Assembly (NCBI GenBank): GCA_019058315.1
Contig: JAHPZH010000001.1
Location: forward strand, 149,466-213,465
Direction: 5' to 3'
Source: Candidatus Helarchaeota archaeon
GTDB lineage: Archaea; Asgardarchaeota; Lokiarchaeia; Helarchaeales; RDOG01
Length of the DNA stretch: 64,000 nucleotides
A model generated the notes under the pieces. That model saw nothing but the letters and a program-made list of their open reading frames with translations. It was not told the DNA's origin and ran no database searches. How positions within the stretch are numbered: the first letter of the stretch is position 1; every line of letters starts with the position of its first letter. A program made the position numbers and the translations under genes. This document shows positions 21,584 through 60,881 of this stretch, one piece after another.

Positions 21584-22387
21584 TTGGATACTTGGGTAAT
21601 TTTAATGCCAAATGAGATTGAAGGTAAAGACTCCAATGAATGGTTTCTAACTGGATATTCATTTTATGAATTTGATAATTATCATTCAGCAATAGAATGT
21701 TTTGAAAAAGCGGTTAAAATAGATCCACAGAATGTTGATGCTTGGGTTAATATGGGAAGTTCTTATTTGGGTTTACAGGATTATCAAAAAGTGATCGAAT
21801 GTAACGAAAAAGCAATTAATATTGATCCAAATCATAAAATAGCATGGTACAATACGGGAAAAGCCTATTTTGGATTAGAAAATAATCAGAAATCCCTAGA
21901 ATGTTATAAAAAAGCTGTTGAGATCGACCCTCAACTAAGTCAGGCCTGGAATAACATGGGAACTATCTATGTTATTTTGGAAAAATATCAGAAAGCGATT
22001 GAATGTTTCGAAAAAGCTATCAAAATCGACTCTCGAGCTGATGCATGGAATAATATGGGTGTTATTTACCTTAATTTACAAAAATATAAAAAAGCAATTG
22101 AGTGTTATAAAGAAGTTGTTAAATTAGAGCCCCAAAATAGCAATGCATGGAGTAATATGGGAGTGGTATACCGTAGGTTAGAAGAATATCAAAAATCAAT
22201 TGAGTGTTACGAAAAAGCTACTGAAATCGACCCTCTATATGCTGATCCTTGGATAAATATGGCAGTAGTGTACGAAAAATTAAAAAATTATCAAAAAGCG
22301 ATTGAATGTTGCGAAAAAGCCTTTGAAATTAACCCCAATGATGAAGAGGTTTTGAAATATATTGATTTTTTGAAATCAAAACTCTGA
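21584..22387 (+). CDS. Tetratricopeptide repeat protein
   Basis: About 7 repeats of AWxNMG..Y..L..YQKAIECxEKAxxIDP. Probable start is the ATG at 21605. Confidence 0.95.
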   Translation: MDTWVILMPNEIEGKDSNEWFLTGYSFYEFDNYHSAIECFEKAVKIDPQNVDAWVNMGSSYLGLQDYQKVIECNEKAINIDPNHKIAWYNTGKAYFGLENNQKSLECYKKAVEIDPQLSQAWNNMGTIYVILEKYQKAIECFEKAIKIDSRADAWNNMGVIYLNLQKYKKAIECYKEVVKLEPQNSNAWSNMGVVYRRLEEYQKSIECYEKATEIDPLYADPWINMAVVYEKLKNYQKAIECCEKAFEINPNDEEVLKYIDFLKSKL

Positions 22388-22469
22388 TTTTTAAAACTCT
22401 AAATATTTTCTTTTTTATACATTATTTGGACTAGCAATAAATTTATTATTTTATAGATTAGGTTTACAT

Positions 22470-23045
22470 ATGCATTTAAATTTTCATGCTGCTATTGGAA
22501 TTCTCATTTCTATGATATTTTCACAGTATCTATCAAATTTTCAGATCGATTTTATTATTTTCGCTTCGATGATCATCGATCTGGATTTTTTATTTTCAAA
22601 ATTTGCCCAAAAACATAACCATCGAAGATTAATAACACACACATTCTTCCCCTATATAATTATAGCGCTAATCAGTGTATTTTTAATTAATATCACCCCA
22701 TTATGGTTTTATTTCTTTCTTTTTAGTATCTGCGCCATAATTCATGTTTTTGTTGATTTAATTGATTGGGGTATATCCCCGTTTCTTCCCTTTAAAAAAG
22801 ATTTTGTGGGAGGTATTTTGGAACGACCTGAAACTAATGAAGATGAGCCATATTGGATTCGTCGTTGCTATTTTGTTAATAGATATTACAGCTCAAAATC
22901 TATTATTAGCATAGAACTAATTATTGGTGTTCTAGCTTTCTTATCTATACTGTATTTTGCCCCAGATTATTTCGAAATCATTACAATCTATATTTTTTGG
23001 CTAGTAATACATTTAGTTCAATATCTCTTATGTCGTAGGCGATGA
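22470..23045 (+). CDS. Membrane-bound metal-dependent hydrolase (YdjM-like)
   Basis: N-terminal H..FH, IDLDF, HRRLITHT, IHVFVD. Confidence 0.75.
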   Translation: MHLNFHAAIGILISMIFSQYLSNFQIDFIIFASMIIDLDFLFSKFAQKHNHRRLITHTFFPYIIIALISVFLINITPLWFYFFLFSICAIIHVFVDLIDWGISPFLPFKKDFVGGILERPETNEDEPYWIRRCYFVNRYYSSKSIISIELIIGVLAFLSILYFAPDYFEIITIYIFWLVIHLVQYLLCRRR

Positions 23046-23070
23046 CTTAGATTTTATAATATGTATAAAA

Positions 23071-24096
23071 TTATTCTCTACCCAATTCATATCCATAAAT
23101 TCCTTTATGGATAATTTCACCTTTTTTTAATTGATCAAGACCATGAGAAATTTTCATTAAAATTTGAGGTTTTGTTAAATCTATGATATCTAGTAATTCT
23201 TTATTTTCTGATGCAAAATTTGCTAATTGTCTTCTATTACCCTTTTTAATATGAAATAATATTCTAATTACTAACATTGAATTAAAACTGGAAATGCTTC
23301 TTAAGACATTATCTCCCGAAATTAATTGAATTTTATCTTCTAAATTTAAATCATTAATAATTGCTTGTAATAATTGTAATTTTTCATTTTTATTTCCCCT
23401 AAGATGTTTAGTAAAAATATTCCAAAATTCTTTTTCTAATCCATACTCAATTAGCCAACTTCGAAAAATTTCTATTGAAAAATAATTTTTTATTTTACTG
23501 ATATCTTTAATTGCTTCTTTTATGACTAATTTTAACATATCTGTTTTAAATTTCATAGTTCGAAATTTATTCTGTAAAAATTCGTATATTTTAGTGTCTT
23601 TATAAGCTTCTTTTAATTTCTTACTATCGCTAATATTTGCTTCAAATAATCTTTTCTGGATTTCAACTATTTCTAAATCATTTATTTCTTCAGGTTCAAA
23701 TTTATACTCTTTTTGAATTTGTGTTCCTTTCGAAGCATATTCTCCAGATTTTAAAATATCAAATTCTCGCTGTAATAGATTAATATCTTTTGCAGTCGGA
23801 AGAGAATCCATTTTAGAGATTATTTCTTGCATATTTCGCAGTATTGCTAATTGTTGTTCTTGAAAATCTTTTTGGTCTTTTCTTAACTTTTCAATCTCTG
23901 AAAAATCCTGAACAACAGGTTTGGCTTTTTTTTTCTTACTTTTTTCCTTAACTTCTTCTATACAATCAACACAATAGAATTTCTTTCTATATTGAGTTAA
24001 ATCATCTTTAGGAAATTTTTTTTCACAATTACTACAAAAATAATCTTTAATTTCTTCTTCAGCATCTTCTTCAATATCAAATAAAAGTTTACTCAA
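23071..24096 (-). CDS. Hypothetical protein: C4 zinc finger, coiled coil, possible C-terminal winged helix
   Basis: CSNC-x16-CVDC, heptad-like segment, C-terminal ISHGLDQLKKGEIIHKG..GYEL; 2 bp downstream of the RHH gene. Confidence 0.55.
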   Translation of the reverse strand: MSKLLFDIEEDAEEEIKDYFCSNCEKKFPKDDLTQYRKKFYCVDCIEEVKEKSKKKKAKPVVQDFSEIEKLRKDQKDFQEQQLAILRNMQEIISKMDSLPTAKDINLLQREFDILKSGEYASKGTQIQKEYKFEPEEINDLEIVEIQKRLFEANISDSKKLKEAYKDTKIYEFLQNKFRTMKFKTDMLKLVIKEAIKDISKIKNYFSIEIFRSWLIEYGLEKEFWNIFTKHLRGNKNEKLQLLQAIINDLNLEDKIQLISGDNVLRSISSFNSMLVIRILFHIKKGNRRQLANFASENKELLDIIDLTKPQILMKISHGLDQLKKGEIIHKGIYGYELGRE

Positions 24097-24098
24097 TA

Positions 24099-24473
24099 TT
24101 ATTCCTCCTCTAACCCAAATTTCTCTTCTAATTTATCTATTAATTCTAAATCAACTGTTTCTTGAAAATGAGAGAGATATAATTTCGGGTTTTTTAATAT
24201 TATTTTATGATTTTTCTTTACCCAAAGAAAAAAATTAAATAACATTTTAAATCCATTAATTAAATCACCATTATTTTTTGTTTTCGGCTTTTCGCTCACT
24301 TCTTTTTCGGATTCATCAATATAAGCCGTTAATGCTCCTCTAATTAAGTCAGTTACATTATTAAAATTCATTTCTTCTGCTTTTTTAGTTAAAATCTCCT
24401 TGGAAATTTGAGTTCTAAATGTTATAGGCTTCTTTTTTTCTTCATCTTTTAATTTTGGTCTGCCACGATTCAT
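24099..24473 (-). CDS. Ribbon-helix-helix (CopG-like) DNA-binding protein
   Basis: GRPK arm, strand PITFRT, helix ISKEILTKKAEEM, turn, NVTDLIRGALTAYI. Confidence 0.7.
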   Translation of the reverse strand: MNRGRPKLKDEEKKKPITFRTQISKEILTKKAEEMNFNNVTDLIRGALTAYIDESEKEVSEKPKTKNNGDLINGFKMLFNFFLWVKKNHKIILKNPKLYLSHFQETVDLELIDKLEEKFGLEEE

Positions 24474-24484
24474 GCTATAATTAT

Positions 24485-24595
24485 TGTCTTACACATATTT
24501 AAATGTGTCTTACACAAAATATCATTTGTAATACAAAAAAATTTTTCAAAGTATCCATTTTTTAATGTAAGACGGAAATTCCTTTTTGTAAGACA
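24485..24595. promoter_or_regulatory. Five TGT-N3-ACA/G boxes around the RHH gene promoter (putative operator)
   Basis: TGTCTTACA at 24485 and 24506, TGTAATACA at 24527, TGTAAGACG at 24566, TGTAAGACA at 24587; spacings 21, 21, 39 and 21 bp. Minus-strand TATA box TTTAAATA at 24496-24503 lies between boxes 1 and 2. Confidence 0.65.
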
Positions 24596-24619
24596 AAAAA
24601 TTATGTGCTAGATCAAGTA

Positions 24620-24945
24620 TCAAGAAAAAATTTGACCTCAAGAAATTTTAATTTTGATCATAATCAAAATCCTGAAAAAAATTAATTCAAAAAAAAATAC
24701 ATAATCCAGAAAAATTTGATCTTGAATTAAGTCTGAACTTGAAAAAAAATTTGTTAAAAAAAAAATTTTTTTAGTTTGTAATCTCAAAAAAATTTTAAAT
24801 TGAAAAATCCAAATTTCAAAAATTTTATTCAAAAAAAATCTCAAAAAATCTGTCTTCAAAAAATGTTAATTATGTAAATCTTGATTTTGAAAAAACTTAG
24901 TCTCAAAAAATTTTATTTTAGAATTAAAAGATCGAAAAAAATTTC
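24620..24945 (+). repeat. Degenerate array of TC-A-tract-TTT units
   Basis: About 14 units such as TCAAGAAAAAATTTG, TCCAGAAAAATTTG, TCAAAAAAATTTT and TCGAAAAAAATTTC; no credible ORF. Confidence 0.55.
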
Positions 24946-25524
24946 TTATGAGCATGATTCATAATTTAACCTTGATTTTATTAATTTTCGATTATATGAT
25001 AAAAATAAACTGGTTTATTCTAAAAATTTTAACAAAAAAATTATGAAGATATATATATCTCCTCGTATTTTATTCTATTACTGATTCTCTTATTTTTGAG
25101 ATTGGAATGATCCTTATGGAACATATGACGTAGCGAATAGGATTCCGGAAATTCAAGAAATCACTTTAGGATCAAAATTTTAATCTAGTGATTTAAAGGT
25201 CAATAAGTATTACATATTTATGACTTTATAAATTCCTGGATCTTATTCAGCGAGTATCGTTCGGAGGTTAAATAAGCCAAAACAAGGCTACTATGCGATT
25301 CGTTGAATAATAAAAGGATCAAATTACTAAAAAATTAATTCTATAAATTACAATAGAGATTTTTCTAATATGGGTTAGGCTACACCATTTACCGCATTCT
25401 AAGCGCAATATAGGAAGGTTTATAAACAATGGACTGATCATAGAATACAAAATAAATCAAAAATGAAAAAAAAGAAATAAAATAATGAAATGTCTCTAAA
25501 AACTGAAAAATAGGTGGTGAAAAA

Positions 25525-25746
25525 TTGGTAAAAAAAATCAAAGTCAAAGTACTCTCGGTAAATGGACATGAAACTTATTCAGTCGCAATTCAAAAAATTC
25601 CTGAATTTATGGAATCACAATTAGACAATAATCATGTTGCATATTGTGAACCTATGAAAAAGATTGTTGAAACTGAAACAGAACTAGAATATATCTTAGA
25701 AATGGTTAGTGAAATTACAATCATCCCTAAAATTCGTGGAGGTTAA
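25525..25746 (+). CDS. Small protein with C-terminal Gly-Gly, putative beta-grasp ubiquitin-like/SAMP/MoaD-like modifier
   Basis: 73 aa; N-terminal strand KIKVKVLS; C-terminus EITIIPKIRGG-stop; strong RBS AGGTGGTGA. Confidence 0.55.
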   Translation: MVKKIKVKVLSVNGHETYSVAIQKIPEFMESQLDNNHVAYCEPMKKIVETETELEYILEMVSEITIIPKIRGG

Positions 25747-25747
25747 T

Positions 25748-26473
25748 ATGAAAAATCAGAAAAATAAACAAATTCGCTTAAAATTATCTCATGATTGGTC
25801 CAAGTTTAATGGAAAAGAATTTGAAAAAGTTAGAAATCAACGAAATTTTCAGATTGGTGAAATTTTAAAGAAAGCAGATCAATTTTATTTGACCACAAAA
25901 AAGGGTCTTAAAGAAATTACGAAAAAATTTGCTTATAAAAAAATAATCAAACATGAAAAGATTAACCCTGAGGAACTTACGAAAGGTTATTTTCCTAGAA
26001 GCGGATATCGAAGATCATTTGGTTCTAAAAAGAAAATTGTGATAAAACATAACAAAACACCTGGCCTATACTGCTATGAACGCTACTTGGGAGCATCAAT
26101 TAAAGCAGGAATTTCAATAACTCTCCATACAAGTAATAAAAAAGTTAAAGATCTCATTAAAATATTTAATGCTCGAATTGGTCGTCCATATCAGCCACCA
26201 ACATTTTCTCCTGAAGCTATAAACAAGGCAAAGAAAGAATTGAAAAATTTGATAAAAATTAATAATCAATTAAAAGTTGTAAATGATAATTTGGTGGTTA
26301 CTAGTAAAAATGGAAGAATTTATAATATAAATCTTCTTTCTGGAGCTGTTTCATCTAAAAAGAAAAGTTATATTTGTACTTGGAGTTCAACCACAAGACT
26401 ACCTTTACCTGATGAAATTATTGCTAAAGCTTTAACTATTGCTTATAAACCAAAACAAATTAGAACGCTATAA
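25748..26473 (+). CDS. Basic hypothetical protein translationally coupled to the Gly-Gly protein
   Basis: ATG at 25748, 1 bp after the upstream stop, with a GGAGG RBS (the ORF track extends it to 25709). C-terminal LVVTSKNGRIYNINLLSGAV..YIC..LP.PD.IIAKAL. Confidence 0.65.
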   Translation: MKNQKNKQIRLKLSHDWSKFNGKEFEKVRNQRNFQIGEILKKADQFYLTTKKGLKEITKKFAYKKIIKHEKINPEELTKGYFPRSGYRRSFGSKKKIVIKHNKTPGLYCYERYLGASIKAGISITLHTSNKKVKDLIKIFNARIGRPYQPPTFSPEAINKAKKELKNLIKINNQLKVVNDNLVVTSKNGRIYNINLLSGAVSSKKKSYICTWSSTTRLPLPDEIIAKALTIAYKPKQIRTL

Positions 26474-53242: not shown

Positions 53243-54655
53243 TTATTTCTTTTTTTCGCCTGTTAAAAATTTGGGATCAAAAATTTTATTTAGTTCTTCT
53301 TTTGTTAAAAGCCCTTTTTGAAGAACCAATTCAAAAATTGATATATTCTTTTCTAGAGACTCTTTAGCTACTTTTGCTGCCTCTAAATAACCAATATAAG
53401 GATTAAGGAATGTTGCTAAAGCTGTATTTTTATCTAGATAATGTAAGCATTTTTCTTTATTTGCCGTTATTCCTAATATACATTTCTCAATAACATTAGG
53501 TAAATAATTAATAAGAATTTGAATAGATTGGAGCACATTATGAATAATTACTGGCATCATTACATTTAATTCAAGTTGTCCTGCTTGAACTGCCATACTT
53601 ACAGTTAGATCATTTCCTACAATTTGAAATGCTACCATATTAAGACATTCTAATATGACAGGATTGACTTTTCCTGGCATAATAGAAGAACCAGGCTGAA
53701 CGGCAGGTAATTTAATTTCAGCAAGGCCAGTTGTAGGTCCAGAACTTAATAATCGAAGATCATTTGCAATACGAATTAATTCTAAAGCTAACTCTTTTAA
53801 ACTACTTGATATAGCTGCCATTCCGACCATACTTTGCATCACTTGACGAAGATCCTTGGGTTTTTTTAATTTTAGATCCGTCAATTCCTTTAATTTTTTG
53901 AGTATTAGATCTTGATATTTTGGATGAGTATTAACACCAGTACCCACAGCAGACCCACCTATTGCAAGTTCCTCGAGTATTTCACCACTTGATTTAATAC
54001 GTCCAATTAGTCTTTTAATGGACTCACTATATGCTAGAAATTCAAAACCTAATGTAGTTGGAACTGCATCTTGTAAATGTGTTCTGCCCGATTTCAAAAT
54101 ATCTTTAAATTCATTCCCTTTATCTAATAATATTGATTGCAAATCTTCTAAAATTGGATATAACTCTTTTAATGACAATAAAGTCGCAATATGCATAGCA
54201 GTAGGAAATGTATCGTTTGTACTCTGAGACATATTTACATGGTCATTTGGGTTAATTTTACTATAATCACCCCTGCTTGATCCCATAATCTCCAAAGCTC
54301 GGTTTGCGATAACCTCATTAACATTCATATTAAAAGAAGTGCCGGCTCCAGCTTGATATACGTCTACAACAAATTGTTCTCGAAACTTACCTTCTAAAAT
54401 TTCATCACAAGCTTGTACTATACTATTGCCTATTTCTTCATCTAATCGCATTAATTCTATATGACATAATGCAGCGGCTTTTTTTATAAAAACATATGCT
54501 TTAATGAAATTAGGATGTTCTTTTATTCCACTTACTGGAAAATTTTCTAAAGCTCTTTGCGTTTGTATGCCGTAATATACATGAGCTGGAATCTTCTTTT
54601 CTCCTAATGAATCTACTTCGATGCGATATATTGTTTGTTCGGTTTCTTCTCCCAA
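53243..54655 (-). CDS. Aspartate ammonia-lyase / class II fumarase family
   Basis: GAGTSFNMNVNEV, SQSTNDTFPT, GRTHLQDA, GSSIMPGKVNP. AspA versus FumC cannot be resolved by eye. Confidence 0.9.
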   Translation of the reverse strand: MGEETEQTIYRIEVDSLGEKKIPAHVYYGIQTQRALENFPVSGIKEHPNFIKAYVFIKKAAALCHIELMRLDEEIGNSIVQACDEILEGKFREQFVVDVYQAGAGTSFNMNVNEVIANRALEIMGSSRGDYSKINPNDHVNMSQSTNDTFPTAMHIATLLSLKELYPILEDLQSILLDKGNEFKDILKSGRTHLQDAVPTTLGFEFLAYSESIKRLIGRIKSSGEILEELAIGGSAVGTGVNTHPKYQDLILKKLKELTDLKLKKPKDLRQVMQSMVGMAAISSSLKELALELIRIANDLRLLSSGPTTGLAEIKLPAVQPGSSIMPGKVNPVILECLNMVAFQIVGNDLTVSMAVQAGQLELNVMMPVIIHNVLQSIQILINYLPNVIEKCILGITANKEKCLHYLDKNTALATFLNPYIGYLEAAKVAKESLEKNISIFELVLQKGLLTKEELNKIFDPKFLTGEKKK

Positions 54656-54831: not shown

Positions 54832-55953
54832 GTGTTGATTGTTATGCAATCAGATAACAAAAGTATAGCGGACATAATTTCTGAAATGATAATAAATGAT
54901 ATTACAAGTAAATTTTCCGAATTTAAAAAAGAAACATTAGGTGGAATAATTGATTTAGGTGAGGACCTAAAGAATTTGGAGACACAATACAATTTAATAA
55001 AAAATGAATTTGGTGATTATCAGAAACAAACAATCAAAGAAATAAATGACTTATCTGAAAATATAACAAATAGATATTCTAATAATCAAGAATTAATTCA
55101 AGAGCAACATAACAAGATCGAAAATTTGGTAACTGAAGCAGTAGGGAATAATTCAAAATCTATTACATCCAAAGTAGAATCTCTCACTGAAGTCACAAAT
55201 AAATTAATGGATTCCTTAAAAAGTGATTTAAATGAAATATCAAATAATTCAGCTAAGAATACAGAAGTAATTGAGGGACAAATTGAGAAGGTAATTATAA
55301 AATTTGAAAATAAACTAAATGAGAATTTAAAAGAAATTGAAAAATCAATTAAAAATTTAGAAGAATTTTCGGATTATTATAAAAAGAATGCAAGTGAAAT
55401 GGGAGATAAAATAGATAAGATTGAAGAATTGATAAAAACACAAGAGGAGAAATATACGAACCTAAATTCAAGTTTCGAAGAATTCCGCCAAAAACAAGAA
55501 TCAATTTTACAAATCATGGAAGAACTTTCTGGTAAATTTAGTCGAATTAAAAGTATTGACATGTTCTCTAAATCAAAAACACCAACTAAGTTAAAGGTAA
55601 TAAAAAGTTCTGATATCGGAGTGTTCAGCTCTCCTAAATTAGAATTTTCACCAAAATTCAAAAGCGAGAGTAGTAGAAATGCAACGATTGATTGTTTAAT
55701 CCAACTTGAAAAAATAGCTAATCAGGAAGGAATTACTGGTAATGAAATCAAAAAATATACCCAAGACGCAAGAGATATAGTCTTTGAAAATCTCCTTCAA
55801 AGAGGGGCTATTATGGAACTACTCAAAGAAGGCATCATGATTTTTAAAAAAAATCCAGATAATATTGATACAGGATATATAAAAGGTTTTGCTAGACAAT
55901 TAAATATATATCGCAAAGTGTGTGAAAACGCACCAATTGATAGTTTAGAATAA
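54832..55953 (+). CDS. Long coiled-coil protein with small C-terminal helical domain
   Basis: About 230 aa of E/K/N/I/L heptad sequence, an S/K/P linker, then a helical C-terminus; probable start ATG at 54844. Confidence 0.6.
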   Translation: MLIVMQSDNKSIADIISEMIINDITSKFSEFKKETLGGIIDLGEDLKNLETQYNLIKNEFGDYQKQTIKEINDLSENITNRYSNNQELIQEQHNKIENLVTEAVGNNSKSITSKVESLTEVTNKLMDSLKSDLNEISNNSAKNTEVIEGQIEKVIIKFENKLNENLKEIEKSIKNLEEFSDYYKKNASEMGDKIDKIEELIKTQEEKYTNLNSSFEEFRQKQESILQIMEELSGKFSRIKSIDMFSKSKTPTKLKVIKSSDIGVFSSPKLEFSPKFKSESSRNATIDCLIQLEKIANQEGITGNEIKKYTQDARDIVFENLLQRGAIMELLKEGIMIFKKNPDNIDTGYIKGFARQLNIYRKVCENAPIDSLE

Positions 55954-55986: not shown

Positions 55987-58920
55987 TTAAAAAAAGATAT
56001 TTTTCCTTCGAGCTCGCCATTTATAAATTTCTACAGCTATAAAACTTTGAATGGAGAGTAATATTACCCATAACCAATCTGTTAATGATAAATACATTTG
56101 ATTAAAATCTATACCCATATCTTGAAAACGTGGAATAATATAACCACTTAAAAAGACTAAAAGAACCTGTGCTACAATTGTCAAAGCGACCATAATTAAT
56201 ATCAATATATTGAACTCTTCTTTTATACTTTTATTTACTGGCGAATTTGGGCGTCTTATATTCCATACCATTATTGGTTCAGAAATAAATAATATTGTCA
56301 TACAAATAGTTGCAGCTTTTTGATGCTCTGGAGGATATCCTGGAGGAATTTTAAAAACATCAATATAACTTATGAAAGGATTTAAATTTACTTCATTAGG
56401 TCCTAAAATTGGTGTTAAGCAAAGTAAGAATCCGGCTGTAACACCAAGTAATAAAAATAAAACATGAAAAATAAGCAATTTTAATACTGAACGTGAAAAA
56501 ATCTCTTCTGAGTCACGAGGTGGCTCTTTCATTACTTCTTTAGGGTGTGAATCAAATGTTAGTGCTAATGGTGGTAGAGAATGAACAGCTAAAACAATGA
56601 ACATATGTTGAATAAATGTGTAAAATTCAAAATTTGGAACAAAAGCTAATGAAAAAAAGAAAATTCCCTCAACCAAATCCATACATATAAAATAATAAAT
56701 TAAAGTTCTGATTTTTGAAAAAAGTCCTCTACCAACCCTTATTCCTCTTTCAATAGAAGTAAAATTATCATCGGAAATAACCATATCCGCAGCTTCTTTT
56801 GCAACATCTGTTCCCGTAATTCCCATAGCAATTCCTGTATTTGATAATTTCAAAGCTAATGAGTCATTAATCCCATCACCAGTCATTGCTACTACACGAT
56901 TTTCTTCATCTTGAAGTCTCTTAACAATAATTTCTTTATCCGAAGGAGAAACTCTAGCAAAAACAGCAGCTTTTGAAAGGTCTTCTTTATTCATATTTTT
57001 AATATCTTTACCTTCAATAACAACTTCTCCTTCTTCAAATATGTCCATTTGAGTAGCAATAGATTTAGCTGTATTTGGATGATCACCTGTTATCATAATG
57101 ACTTTGATTCCAGCAGATTCACAGGAATTTACAGCTTCTTTAACTCCATCTCTAGGAGGATCAAGGATGGCTACAAATCCATGAAAAGTTAAGTTTTTCT
57201 CAATTTCATCTCTCTCATAATTCTTCTTTTTTTCGCTTATTCTTTTAAAAGCAATTGATAAAGTCCTAAACCCTTCATTTGCATATTTATTAATTAAATT
57301 AGATAATTCTTTAAGTTTTGATTTGGTTAATTCTACCTCTTCATCGTTTAGAACAATTTTATTTGATCTATTTAGAATAATTTCTGAAGCTCCTTTAACA
57401 AATGCCATATATTCCCCTTTCTCATCTTCAATAACCGTTGCCATTCTTTTTACTGTTGAATCAAAAGGTAATTCTTGAACAAATTGGAATTTATCTTTCA
57501 TAATAAATGGATTCAGGGCTGCTTTTTCTGCTAATACTAATAGTGCTGTTTCGGTTGGAGCTCCAAGAGATCTTCTAACAACTTTAACATCTTGTCCTTT
57601 CACTTTTACTTTAATTTCTTCTTCTTGAATAGATGAATTATTATTAATTACAATTGAAAGAAATAGTAATTCAAGATAAGGATCTTCACTAATATCTATT
57701 TCTTTACCGGATAATAATATTCTACCCTCTTTATCATAACCAGAGCCCTCAACATCATAAATTTTATCATTATACCAAAATTTCTTTACAGTCATCTGAT
57801 TTTGAGTTATTGTTCCTGTCTTATCAGATAAAATAACTGAGACCCTTCCAAGAGATTCCACAGCAGATAAATTTCTAATTATTACTCCGCCTTTAGCTAA
57901 ATTTAAAACTCCCGTAATTAAAATAATCGTAGTTAATAGTGGTAAATTAATTGGTACTATATTCATTCCAATACTTAAAGCGAATTTAAACTTATCTCTT
58001 ATTACATTGATAGTAATTTCTGGTGCAGTAAGAAGCGAATAAATAAATACAACTACCAATAATAATATTACAACCAAAGCTAGATATTTAGCAAATTTAT
58101 TCATTTTTTTTGTTAAAGGTATGTCTGCCATTTCAACTTGAGCAAGATTTTTAGAAATCTTTCCTATTTCTGTATTGGCTCCTGTTCCGGTAACCACTAC
58201 TTTAGAACGACCTGTACTTATATAAGTTCCCATAAAGAGCATATTTGTTTGATTTTGTAAAGGAATACCATCCTCGAAATCATCATCTTCGATTGAGATA
58301 ATTTTGTTATTTTTTTCAACAGGAATGCTTTCTCCAGTTAGAATTGCTTCATCGACAGTAAGATCTACCGTTTCTATGACGCGTGCATCCGCCGGAACTT
58401 TATCCCCTTGCTTCAGAACAACTACATCTCCAGGAATTAGCTTCAAAGACGAAATCTCCTGTTCTTTACCTTCTCTAATTACATTAGCTGTAAGTGCAGA
58501 TATTTTTTTAAGCGACTCTATAGTTTTTTGGGCTCTAAATTGTTGAACAATAGCTGTTATTGCATTTATAATAATAATTCCAAAACTTATCGCCGCAGAA
58601 CCCATCTCTCCTAGAAAGAGCATTATACAGGCACTTATTATTAATATAACAATGAATATATTAAAAATTGGAGCTAAATAAATCTTAAGTTTAGAAATTC
58701 CAGCTTTTGGAATTTCATTTAAACCAAAATTTAGATGAAATTCGTCTATTTTCCCAATATTTACCCCTTTCTCTGGATCAGTATCTAATTCGTCATAAAT
58801 TTTCTCTAGAGGCATTGAGAATGCATTTTTTATGTGTGGTATTTCTTTTTCTAATTTTAGTTTTATACCCCTACGGAAAAATTCACGAATTTTTTCCTTA
58901 GATAATATTTTTTCGGGCAC
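55987..58920 (-). CDS. P-type ATPase, P2A-like scaffold with atypical membrane site
   Basis: LTGES, SDKTGT, KGA, DPPR, MITGD, FARVSP, TGDGIND; TM4 reads NIVPINLP rather than AIPEGLP. Confidence 0.93.
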   Translation of the reverse strand: MPEKILSKEKIREFFRRGIKLKLEKEIPHIKNAFSMPLEKIYDELDTDPEKGVNIGKIDEFHLNFGLNEIPKAGISKLKIYLAPIFNIFIVILIISACIMLFLGEMGSAAISFGIIIINAITAIVQQFRAQKTIESLKKISALTANVIREGKEQEISSLKLIPGDVVVLKQGDKVPADARVIETVDLTVDEAILTGESIPVEKNNKIISIEDDDFEDGIPLQNQTNMLFMGTYISTGRSKVVVTGTGANTEIGKISKNLAQVEMADIPLTKKMNKFAKYLALVVILLLVVVFIYSLLTAPEITINVIRDKFKFALSIGMNIVPINLPLLTTIILITGVLNLAKGGVIIRNLSAVESLGRVSVILSDKTGTITQNQMTVKKFWYNDKIYDVEGSGYDKEGRILLSGKEIDISEDPYLELLFLSIVINNNSSIQEEEIKVKVKGQDVKVVRRSLGAPTETALLVLAEKAALNPFIMKDKFQFVQELPFDSTVKRMATVIEDEKGEYMAFVKGASEIILNRSNKIVLNDEEVELTKSKLKELSNLINKYANEGFRTLSIAFKRISEKKKNYERDEIEKNLTFHGFVAILDPPRDGVKEAVNSCESAGIKVIMITGDHPNTAKSIATQMDIFEEGEVVIEGKDIKNMNKEDLSKAAVFARVSPSDKEIIVKRLQDEENRVVAMTGDGINDSLALKLSNTGIAMGITGTDVAKEAADMVISDDNFTSIERGIRVGRGLFSKIRTLIYYFICMDLVEGIFFFSLAFVPNFEFYTFIQHMFIVLAVHSLPPLALTFDSHPKEVMKEPPRDSEEIFSRSVLKLLIFHVLFLLLGVTAGFLLCLTPILGPNEVNLNPFISYIDVFKIPPGYPPEHQKAATICMTILFISEPIMVWNIRRPNSPVNKSIKEEFNILILIMVALTIVAQVLLVFLSGYIIPRFQDMGIDFNQMYLSLTDWLWVILLSIQSFIAVEIYKWRARRKNIFF

Positions 58921-59054: not shown

Positions 59055-60881
59055 ATGAGTAGTTATATGAAAAAAATTCTTAGAATTGATTTATCAAATA
59101 ATAAGATAAAAGATGAGATTCCTGACGATAAACTCTTGAGGGATTATATTGGTGGATGTGGTTTAGCTTCGAAATTAATCGTTGACGAAATTAATGGTAA
59201 CACAAATCCCTTAGGGGCAGAAAATAAATTATTATTCATGACCGGTCCTTTAGTAGGCACAACTGCTCCAAGTAATGGAAGACATGTTGTTTGTTCTAAA
59301 TCCCCGTTAACTAATATTTGGGGTGAGGCACATTCAGGAGGAAGATTCGGACCAGAATTAAAATTTGCTGGGATAGATGGTTTAATATTTGAAGGACAAT
59401 CAAATAATCCAGTCTATCTCAAAATTGATGATGAATCTATTGAAATAAAAGATGCAAGTCATATTTGGGGAAAAGATACTTATGAGACTGAAAAAGCTCT
59501 AAAATCAGAACTTGGGGATAAAAAGTATAAGGTGGCATCTATTGGGCAGGCAGGAGAAAATTTACTAAAAATTTCTTCAGTAATGAATGACATGGGACGG
59601 GCAGCGGGAAGATGTGGTCTTGGTGCAGTAATGGGATCTAAAAAACTAAAAGCTATTGTTGTGAAGGGCACTAAAAAGCCAACTATTGCAGATGAAAGAT
59701 TTAATACAATGGCTCTGGAATTTCGAAAGAGAATAAGTGAAAGAGGAGGCATCTTAAGAAAATATGGAACGCCAATAGCGATTAGAAATTTATCAAAATT
59801 TGGAGATATTCCTATTAAAAACTGGCAATTGGGGGACTGGGAAGGTCTTGAAACAATAAATGAAATAGCAAATCTTAGCATTTTAAAAAAACCTATTTCA
59901 TGTTATGGATGTCCTGTAGGTTGTGGACGAAATATAGAAATTAAAGAAGGTAATTATAAGACCGAAGGTGCAGGACCGGAATATGAAACATTAGCGGCAT
60001 TTGGGTCTTCATGTTTAAATGCTAACTTAGAATCAATCGTTAAATGTAATGATATCTGTAATCGATATGGGCTTGATACAATTTCTACTGGAACAACTGT
60101 TGCCTTTGCATTAGAATGCTTTGAAAAAGGATTAATTTCTAGAGAAGAATTGGGATTTGAACTGAATTGGGGGGACCATGAAGCAATTGTTAAAATGACC
60201 GAGTTAATGGCAAATAATGAAGGTTTTGGGAAAATTTTTAATAATGGGACTAAAATTGCTTCAGAAAAAATAAAAGGATCAAATGAATTTGCAGTCCATG
60301 TCAAAGGTTTGGAAATTCCTATGCATGATCCAAGAGCTTTCTATAGTATGGGACTAGAATATGCTACTGGAAATAGAGGAGCTTCGCATTTAGAAGGAAC
60401 CCCTTTTAAAGTTGCGTTAGGATCATTAATGCCAGAAATTGGTATAAATAAAATTGTAGACAGATTTGAAACTTCTGGAAAGGGTCGGATTACTGCTCTA
60501 ACTCAAAATGTAAATGCAGTAAGTAATTCTACCATTATGTGTGTGTTTGTAAGAGACTATATAAATGCAAGTGATTTTACTAGACTCTTAAATTATGCAA
60601 CAGGTTTTGATTACACTGTCTCTGAATTATTAAAAATTGGTGACCGAATACATAATGTGAAACGCGTTTTTAATATATTATGTGGAATAACCGAAAAGGA
60701 TGATACTTTACCCCCTCGATCTCTCGAACCCACAAAAGAAGGTGGAAATGCTGGTATGGTGCCTGATATGAAAAGTATGTTAAAAGAATATTATGAATTT
60801 AGAGGATGGAAGAATGGTATTCCGACTAAGGAGAAACTGAAAGAATTGAATTTAAACTACCTTATCTCAAAAATTCCCTAA
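59055..60881 (+). CDS. aor: Tungsten-dependent aldehyde:ferredoxin oxidoreductase family
   Basis: KSPLT, SGGRFG, GRCGLGAVMGSK, CYGCPVGC, EYET, GLDTISTG, NRGASH, IMCVF. Confidence 0.93.
   Translation: MSSYMKKILRIDLSNNKIKDEIPDDKLLRDYIGGCGLASKLIVDEINGNTNPLGAENKLLFMTGPLVGTTAPSNGRHVVCSKSPLTNIWGEAHSGGRFGPELKFAGIDGLIFEGQSNNPVYLKIDDESIEIKDASHIWGKDTYETEKALKSELGDKKYKVASIGQAGENLLKISSVMNDMGRAAGRCGLGAVMGSKKLKAIVVKGTKKPTIADERFNTMALEFRKRISERGGILRKYGTPIAIRNLSKFGDIPIKNWQLGDWEGLETINEIANLSILKKPISCYGCPVGCGRNIEIKEGNYKTEGAGPEYETLAAFGSSCLNANLESIVKCNDICNRYGLDTISTGTTVAFALECFEKGLISREELGFELNWGDHEAIVKMTELMANNEGFGKIFNNGTKIASEKIKGSNEFAVHVKGLEIPMHDPRAFYSMGLEYATGNRGASHLEGTPFKVALGSLMPEIGINKIVDRFETSGKGRITALTQNVNAVSNSTIMCVFVRDYINASDFTRLLNYATGFDYTVSELLKIGDRIHNVKRVFNILCGITEKDDTLPPRSLEPTKEGGNAGMVPDMKSMLKEYYEFRGWKNGIPTKEKLKELNLNYLISKIP

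Follow-up and report, generated by a model that had tools for sequence, protein, structure and literature searches.

The window analysed here, a stretch of 64,000 nucleotides from contig JAHPZH010000001.1 of a Candidatus Helarchaeota archaeon, carries on its minus strand (positions 55987-58920) the gene of a P-type ATPase whose product is designated P0001. This protein and its relatives (the PxN/His family) are best read as a new branch of the P2 ATPases in which the transport region would be rewired to a single cation site, neither typical of Ca2+ pumps nor of the P4 lipid flippases, and a probability of about 0.7 is assigned to this reading. As judged from the residues of the putative site, P0001 probably moves a small cation other than calcium.

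P0001 belongs to the superfamily of P-type ATPases (HAD-IC) by its motifs as well as by its model scores. The generic P-type model TIGR01494 was passed with 286.8 bits (cut-off 62.3) and five Pfam domains were found above cut-off (Cation_ATPase_N, E1-E2_ATPase, Cation_ATPase, Hydrolase and Cation_ATPase_C). The N- and C-terminal P2 domains, PF00690 and PF00689, are both present and the protein has the P2 architecture; its N-terminal extension is also found in close homologues. The gene and the elements of its product (TM, transmembrane helix) are the following:

55987..58920, minus strand: complete P-type ATPase gene, 977 aa, GTG start, stop-free translation
58540..58542, minus strand: Gln127 at the cytoplasmic end of TM2 (QQFRAQK), from the comparison of the family with canonical pumps
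58327..58338, minus strand: TGES, A-domain dephosphorylation motif of P2/P3 type, residues 195-198 (recomputed coordinates)
57940..57966, minus strand: MNIVPINLP in TM4, with its PINL part at 57943-57954 (recomputed coordinates)
57811..57825, minus strand: DKTGT phosphorylation site (Asp366), a motif invariant in the PxN/His family
56863..56880, minus strand: GDGIND hinge motif, followed by Leu688 (GDGINDSL) where canonical P2A pumps have Pro (GDGxNDxP)
56668..56679, minus strand: D748-L-V-E751 in TM5, at the SERCA N768 and E771 positions
56572..56610, minus strand: QHMFIVLAVHSLP in TM6, with the codon of His780 at 56581-56583
56278..56280, minus strand: Glu881 in TM8, presumed equivalent of SERCA E908 by its position in the predicted helix

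The domain order and the TGES, DKTGT and GDGxND motifs are shared with the P2A Ca2+-ATPases (LMCA1, SPCA1/PMR1 and SERCA). The initial annotation of this DNA had regarded the three catalytic motifs as intact, and each was located at recomputed coordinates within the stop-free open reading frame (ORF). With catalytic machinery of the standard kind, P0001 would be expected to pass through the usual E1/E2 phospho-enzyme cycle.

The transport residues were mapped through a HMMER alignment of P0001 to the Listeria Ca2+-ATPase LMCA1, a protein of solved structure. In TM4 the IPEAL segment of LMCA1 lies opposite VPINL, with Ile324 at the place of the Glu of PE(A/G)L and Asn325 standing where PEGLP has Gly. 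In TM5, GNLGA of LMCA1 lies opposite MDLVE, the Asn being replaced by Asp748, and Glu751 follows three residues later at the position of SERCA E771. In TM6, INLVNDSLP is matched by IVLAVHSLP, with Val at both Asn positions and His780 at that of the Asp; the TDGLP string of Ca2+ pumps becomes VHSLP. Compared with the P2A pumps, P0001 thus has Ile for E309, Asn for G310, Val for N796 and T799, and His for D800 (SERCA numbering), and the ligands of Ca2+ site II (the TM4 Glu and the Asn and Asp of NxxTD in TM6) are represented by Ile324, Val776 and His780, a situation found throughout the family. The TM5 NxxE, the TM8 Glu and the D-W...E..K features of TM10 are kept in the PxN/His family, as in P2A pumps. 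The family is set apart from canonical pumps by N325, H780, Q127 and P84: Gln127 replaces a TM2 Glu that is 96% conserved in canonical P2A pumps, and Pro84 is found where these have a TM1 Gln. These replacements agree with what had been described from the letters of the DNA alone, namely MNIVPINLP (PINL at 57943-57954) rather than a PEGLP-type string in TM4, Val, Val and His in TM6, and Asp at the N768 position with E771 kept in TM5. The claim that the TM8 Glu is retained stands as far as the residue goes, whereas its equivalence to SERCA E908 is presumed from position only.

A structural model, proposed as a check in the initial annotation, was built with AlphaFold2 from a 52-sequence family alignment (pLDDT 85, pTM 0.79). 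Its helices were assigned to ten predicted TM segments, giving a SERCA-like membrane domain as in P2A pumps. In the model, TM4 is unwound at residues 322-325 and the TM6 helix is broken at residues 780-781, and these predicted irregularities coincide exactly with the places where P2 pumps bind their ions.

The same residues recur throughout the family, in which residue counts were taken over 215 proteins (clusters at 90% identity, of which the family comprises at least 215). Pro323 and Glu751 are present in all 215, Gln771 in 214, His780 and Glu881 in 213 each, and Asn325 in 209. Ile324 is found in 182, the remainder having V, F, L, W or T, nearly all hydrophobic; Gln127 is kept in 200 and a second TM6 His (residue 772) in 167. 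Position 748 is occupied by Asn or Asp in 212 proteins (Asn in 198, Asp in 14), and Asp748 is peculiar to the small clade of P0001 itself. In the family alignment these site residues remain near-invariant in relatives down to about 35% identity. Among the exceptions, Met takes the place of Asn325 in three relatives (PTMLP, PIMLL and PIMIP; the metagenome members examined were P0008, P0009, P0134 and P0148), and in P0148 all three of Asn325, His780 and Glu881 are replaced (by Ser, Gln and Gln, respectively). This joint loss suggests that the three residues may work as a unit.

When 1.84 billion representatives were searched exhaustively with HMMER, a sharp boundary of the family was seen. The top clusters (about 36 at 50% identity, fragments counted), scoring from 1063 down to about 515 bits, read P-hydrophobic-N in TM4, NxxE in TM5 and ...H(S/T)xP in TM6; below this boundary nearly all matches read PEGLP, NxxE and NLVTDGLP. 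The full-length family clusters at 50% identity number 31. With residues 260-400 as the query, 120 clusters (90% identity) were retrieved, and P-(I/T/V/F)-(N/M)-(L/I)-P was read in all but one of the scored fragments. The recurrence of the same changes across the family is far more than chance would produce, and the survey of the PINL motif that had been suggested for Asgard genomes shows it, in the form P-hydrophobic-N, to be family-wide.

A decaying or non-functional paralogue with motifs altered by drift was among the outcomes that the initial annotation had named as fatal to its proposal. The reading frame is open and all catalytic motifs are present, and comparison with the syntenic orthologue L091 (89% identical, in a Helarchaeota metagenome-assembled genome, MAG) gave a ratio of nonsynonymous to synonymous divergence (dN/dS) of 0.116 at dS 0.50; a value of 0.115 was obtained against L090. 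The gene is under strong purifying selection. Because of this ratio of 0.12 and the conservation of the same residues in 215 relatives, decay is refuted and its probability is practically negligible.

The placement of P0001 among P-type ATPases was approached with the NCBIfam subfamily models, and every subfamily-specific model remained below its curated cut-off. The P2A models scored highest (TIGR01116, 456.5 bits vs a cut-off of 703.4; TIGR01522, 453.9 vs 798.3), followed by P2D (399), P2B (385), P2C (362), P3A (TIGR01647, 343.9 vs 615.5), P3B (329), P5 (246) and finally P4 (TIGR01652, 133.5 vs 431.25). The best sequence matches in the PDB were LMCA1, SPCA1 and SERCA (E 1e-123 to 1e-100), with fold similarity (TM-score) up to 0.78/0.85, and the top 50 PDB matches of a Foldseek search were all P2 pumps: SPCA1, LMCA1 and SERCA, followed by Na,K- and H,K-ATPases. 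Matches in the ESM Atlas belonged to generic P-type clusters only.

The phylogeny that had been proposed earlier was run with canonical P2A, P3A, P3B and P1B references. In a FastTree tree and in an IQ-TREE tree, for which the TM4 and TM6 columns were deleted beforehand and the P1B pump served as root, the 31 family rows form one clade (SH-aLRT 99) with P0001 inside. This clade is sister (support 91) to 27 canonical prokaryotic PEGLP pumps in the IQ-TREE tree, where the archaeal P3A loci L092 and L093 (both passing the cut-off of TIGR01647) and the bacterial P3B pumps L095 and L096 fall outside the family and P2A. Relative to the references in this tree, the sequences thus place the family as a P2 group sister to P2A. 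P0001 carries all the marks of the Asgard PxN / M6-His clade, namely the TM4 P-hydrophobic-N, the (N/D)xxE of TM5, the Q...H of TM6, the TM8 Glu and the position within the clade; it falls short of the P2A equivalog cut-offs and lacks the site-II ligands.

The initial annotation had taken the TM4 string as a hint of lipid transport, the protein being either an Asgard intermediate towards P4 ATPases or a convergent form. Stated in full, P0001 would be a transporter of lipids, amphipathic molecules or organic cations with Ile324 as a hydrophobic gate, and the PxN/His clade an independent or ancestral archaeal route to flippase-like transport, in which a lipid head-group, an organic cation or an amphipathic molecule would pass the TM4 Ile. 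Apart from the loss of the Ca2+ ligands and the Asgard origin of the host, the ground for this idea is the resemblance of N-x-V-P-I-N-L in TM4 to the N-x-I-P-I-S-L of P4 flippases (ATP8A2, Drs2p), in which the Ile of PISL sits, after an Asn, at the position of the PEGL Glu, that of SERCA E309 (PMC4937031). To judge by the sequences, this Ile after the TM4 Pro is the only likeness of P0001 to P4, and the Ser of PISL is replaced by the near-invariant Asn325. Ile or Val is also found at this position in P3 ATPases, among them the H+-ATPases (PMC4937031), and the archaeal P3A loci L092 and L093 read SIPVALP in TM4.

Other P4 features are missing. The A-domain motif conserved in P4 is DGET (PMC4937031), as opposed to TGES in P0001; TM5 reads YYFICMDLVEGIFFF and holds no Lys (cf. 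K873 of ATP8A2), both contrasts having been drawn correctly beforehand; and the TM6 position is occupied by His and not by the P4-type Asn. The CDC50 subunit, which accompanies P4A pumps (PMC4937031) and had been reported as lacking in the window, was not found in the whole genome either (PF03381, genome 94% complete, search run without a positive control). A search for P4-like genes at E<=1e-60 detected none in 61 phylum genomes with a completeness of at least 90%, again with no positive control. Taken with the P4 model score of 133 bits vs 431, the lack of P4 pumps among the top 50 fold matches and the grouping of the clade with P2A, the earlier lipid inference is unsupported and such transport is very improbable. 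The invariant, buried and ionisable Glu751, His780 and Glu881 argue for an ion site rather than a lipid groove. P0001 is, in all likelihood, neither a lipid flippase nor a step towards the P4 ATPases. What is left of the original proposal of an active pump with a novel substrate is an intact gene under purifying selection whose site-II Ca2+ ligands are lost; a lipid substrate is not supported.

The named members of the family are Asgard archaea (Hel-, Loki-, Thor-, Odin-, Hermod- and Hodarchaeota, Ranarchaeia and Harpocratesius) save one, and a basal sub-clade reading AIP(F/V/W)NFP...HxFP is likewise Asgard. The odd one is P0321, labelled 'Candidatus Nanopelagicaceae bacterium', whose contig was probably mis-binned. 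Of 201 sampled genomes of the phylum about 130 contain the family, as do 13 of 28 family-level groups (E<1e-300, as read from the hit table), and it is thus widespread but not universal. A first count of 192/201, obtained with the family hidden Markov model (HMM) at E<=1e-100, was rejected as an over-count because canonical pumps also match the model: the canonical Ca2+ pump of the P0001 genome itself scores 852 bits, and in ten genomes whose best E values lie between 1e-219 and 1e-273 the only pumps are of the PEGLP/TDG type. Canonical P2A pumps reach about 730-910 bits on this HMM, so that counts of the family come out too high at thresholds looser than about 1e-300. A contig scan with the basal-clade alignment was saturated by canonical pumps (1 of 80 loci in the family, an Asgard one) and says little on the range beyond Asgard. 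In many other Asgard genomes the genes occur as tandem pairs, a PINIP/THxFP type beside a PINLP/VHSLP type (e.g. L007, 6001-11861), and the genome of P0001 has the PINLP/VHSLP type only.

This genome (5.8 Mb, 94% complete) encodes four P-type ATPases, L001, L002, L003 and P0001. L001 is a P1B pump of CPC type. L002 (G000 contig C5, about 791040-794570) is a P3A-like pump of about 800 aa with AAIPVALP, YRIAETIR and LLNDAP, and clusters with archaeal P3A H+-ATPase homologues. L003 (contig C6 of the same genome, about 22153-25758) is a canonical P2A Ca2+ pump with AAVPEGLP, SCNTGE and WVNLTTDGLP. P0001 is therefore an addition to a normal Ca2+ pump and a putative H+ pump and replaces neither, and because these two coexist with it, it presumably has another substrate.

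In the proposed working of P0001, Ca2+ site II would be dismantled through the exchange of the TM4 Glu for Ile and of the TM6 Asn and Asp for Val and His, and the loss of these ligands makes an ordinary Ca2+ pump unlikely. A single pocket resembling site I would be left, formed by Asp/Asn748 and Glu751 of TM5 and Glu881 of TM8 and supplemented by Asn325 from the unwound part of TM4 and His780 at the TM6 break. The change to Gln127 neutralises an acidic residue of TM2, at the cytoplasmic end of this helix. One small cation per cycle would be taken from the cytoplasm and expelled, with His780 acting as a ligand, as a built-in counter-ion, or as both.

Two carboxylates with an imidazole and amides are typical of a transition-metal site and bind Ca2+, Mg2+, Na+ or K+ poorly, and Met is no ligand for hard cations. 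As the putative site consists of two carboxylates, His and amide(s), and Met stands for Asn325 in three relatives, a divalent transition metal (Mn, Fe, Zn, Co or Ni) is put forward, tentatively, as the first choice of substrate. A conserved M6 His is also found in the P1B-4 metal pumps (CoaT, CtpD), where it packs against the residues that flank the M4 Pro (PMC8880997); in CoaT, where it lies between the M4 SPC residues, it has been proposed as a built-in counter-ion or possible ligand (PMC8880997; PMC10654040). The P1B-4 pumps belong to another subfamily, with eight TM helices and SPC and HEGxT motifs, and have no close homology to P0001, the analogy being mechanistic only.

Several points weigh against a rewired site of this kind and against a transition metal as its substrate. 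The clustering of Asp/Asn748, Glu751, Glu881, Asn325 and His780 is inferred from homology to SERCA and LMCA1, and the tree that sets the family beside P2A is without eukaryotic P2B, P2C, P2D, P4 and P5 references. No metal regulator, chaperone or partner/beta-subunit is conserved beside the gene in 24 loci, and this missing metal-related neighbour is a weakness of the transition-metal guess. Furthermore, a pump for protons or monovalent cations would also be compatible with a protonatable His and a hydrophobic residue in TM4.

In such a pump for H+, Na+ or K+, His780 with Glu751, Glu881 and Asn325 would form a protonatable carrier or a built-in counter-ion, comparable to the Asp/Asn/Arg centre of P3A H+-ATPases. 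P0001 has in common with the P3A enzymes (AHA2, Pma1 and the archaeal ones) a hydrophobic residue after the TM4 Pro, at the E309 position (PMC4937031; SIPVALP in L092 and L093, AAIPVALP in L002), and a transport site of few ligands that would rely on one key protonatable TM6 residue. The net charge of the site is reduced, the TM2 Glu being neutralised to Gln127, and the frequency of the pump in the phylum, often in tandem duplicates, suits a housekeeping ion pump. P3A pumps, however, keep a TM6 Asp (LLNDAP) and a TM5 Arg (YRITETIR), have a length of about 800 aa and fall in a clade of their own, whereas P0001 has the TM6 His, no intramembrane TM5 Arg and a position apart from L092, L093 and L002; its TIGR01647 score is 344 bits vs a cut-off of 615. 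A P3A-like pump with the canonical Asp in M6 and Arg in M5, L002, is already present in the genome, many of the phylum's genomes have canonical pumps only and lack the family, and His is rare as a ligand of Na+ or K+. Proton or monovalent-cation transport is regarded as somewhat less probable than that of a transition metal.

Transport of a hard divalent cation, Ca2+ or Mg2+, is unlikely. In this case one ion would be held by Asn/Asp748, Glu751, Glu881 and Asn325, and the protonated His780 would be the counter-ion, with no need for H+ counter-transport. The nearest relatives in sequence and fold are Ca2+ pumps and the site-I residues are kept; built-in counter-ions are known in other P-type subfamilies (PMC10654040; PMC8880997); and public annotations call members 'Ca2+-transporting ATPase', a survey of the Asgard transportome also listing putative Ca2+-ATPase orthologues (PMC7997004). 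On the other side, both TIGR Ca2+-pump equivalogs are missed by more than 240 bits, a canonical Ca2+ pump coexists in the genome, too few oxygen ligands are left for Ca2+, and some members have Met at the place of Asn325. LMCA1, SPCA and PMCA, the known Ca2+ pumps with a single site, keep site II rather than site I.

The immediate surroundings of the pump gene contain the following genes:

53243-54655, minus strand: class II fumarase gene, flanking the pump gene
54832-55953, plus strand: ORF of 373 aa rich in coiled coil, between the fumarase and ATPase genes, with weak matches to Apolipoprotein and Mce4_CUP1 below cut-off
59055-60881, plus strand: aldehyde:ferredoxin oxidoreductase (AOR) gene, flanking the pump gene

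The syntenic locus L091 has the order AOR-ATPase-fumarase-KARI and lacks the 373-aa ORF, which is for this reason taken as a lineage-specific insertion or possibly not a gene. The gene order shared with this MAG suggests a Helarchaeota-like host for the window. Clustering of the ORFs in 24 loci of different groups revealed no neighbour conserved beyond one taxonomic family, and synteny of neighbours was seen within single families only (subtilase and PanB in f8, a Zn-ribbon protein in f2).

A literature search that included work on Asgard P-type ATPases and flippases found, among the papers covered, no description of the PxN/His clade, whose members are annotated publicly as cation or Ca2+ ATPases. 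It is apparently an undescribed subfamily, large, strongly conserved and archaeal. Putative Ca2+-ATPase orthologues have been listed in all five Asgard proteomes of the transportome survey (PMC7997004), and surveys that count genes of this family as Ca2+ pumps, and thus as evidence for eukaryote-like Ca2+ signalling, may over-interpret them (PMC7997004). On present evidence the family has no bearing on the origin of eukaryotic lipid flippases. Its significance lies elsewhere: the subfamilies of P-type ATPases generally match different substrates, the binding of cations by P2 and P3 pumps centres on the residue at the SERCA Asp800 position, and here a large archaeal clade carries an invariant His at this very position. 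If characterised, the clade would probably represent a new specificity class within the P2 group, and could be a second example in the superfamily of a His serving as built-in counter-ion or ligand.

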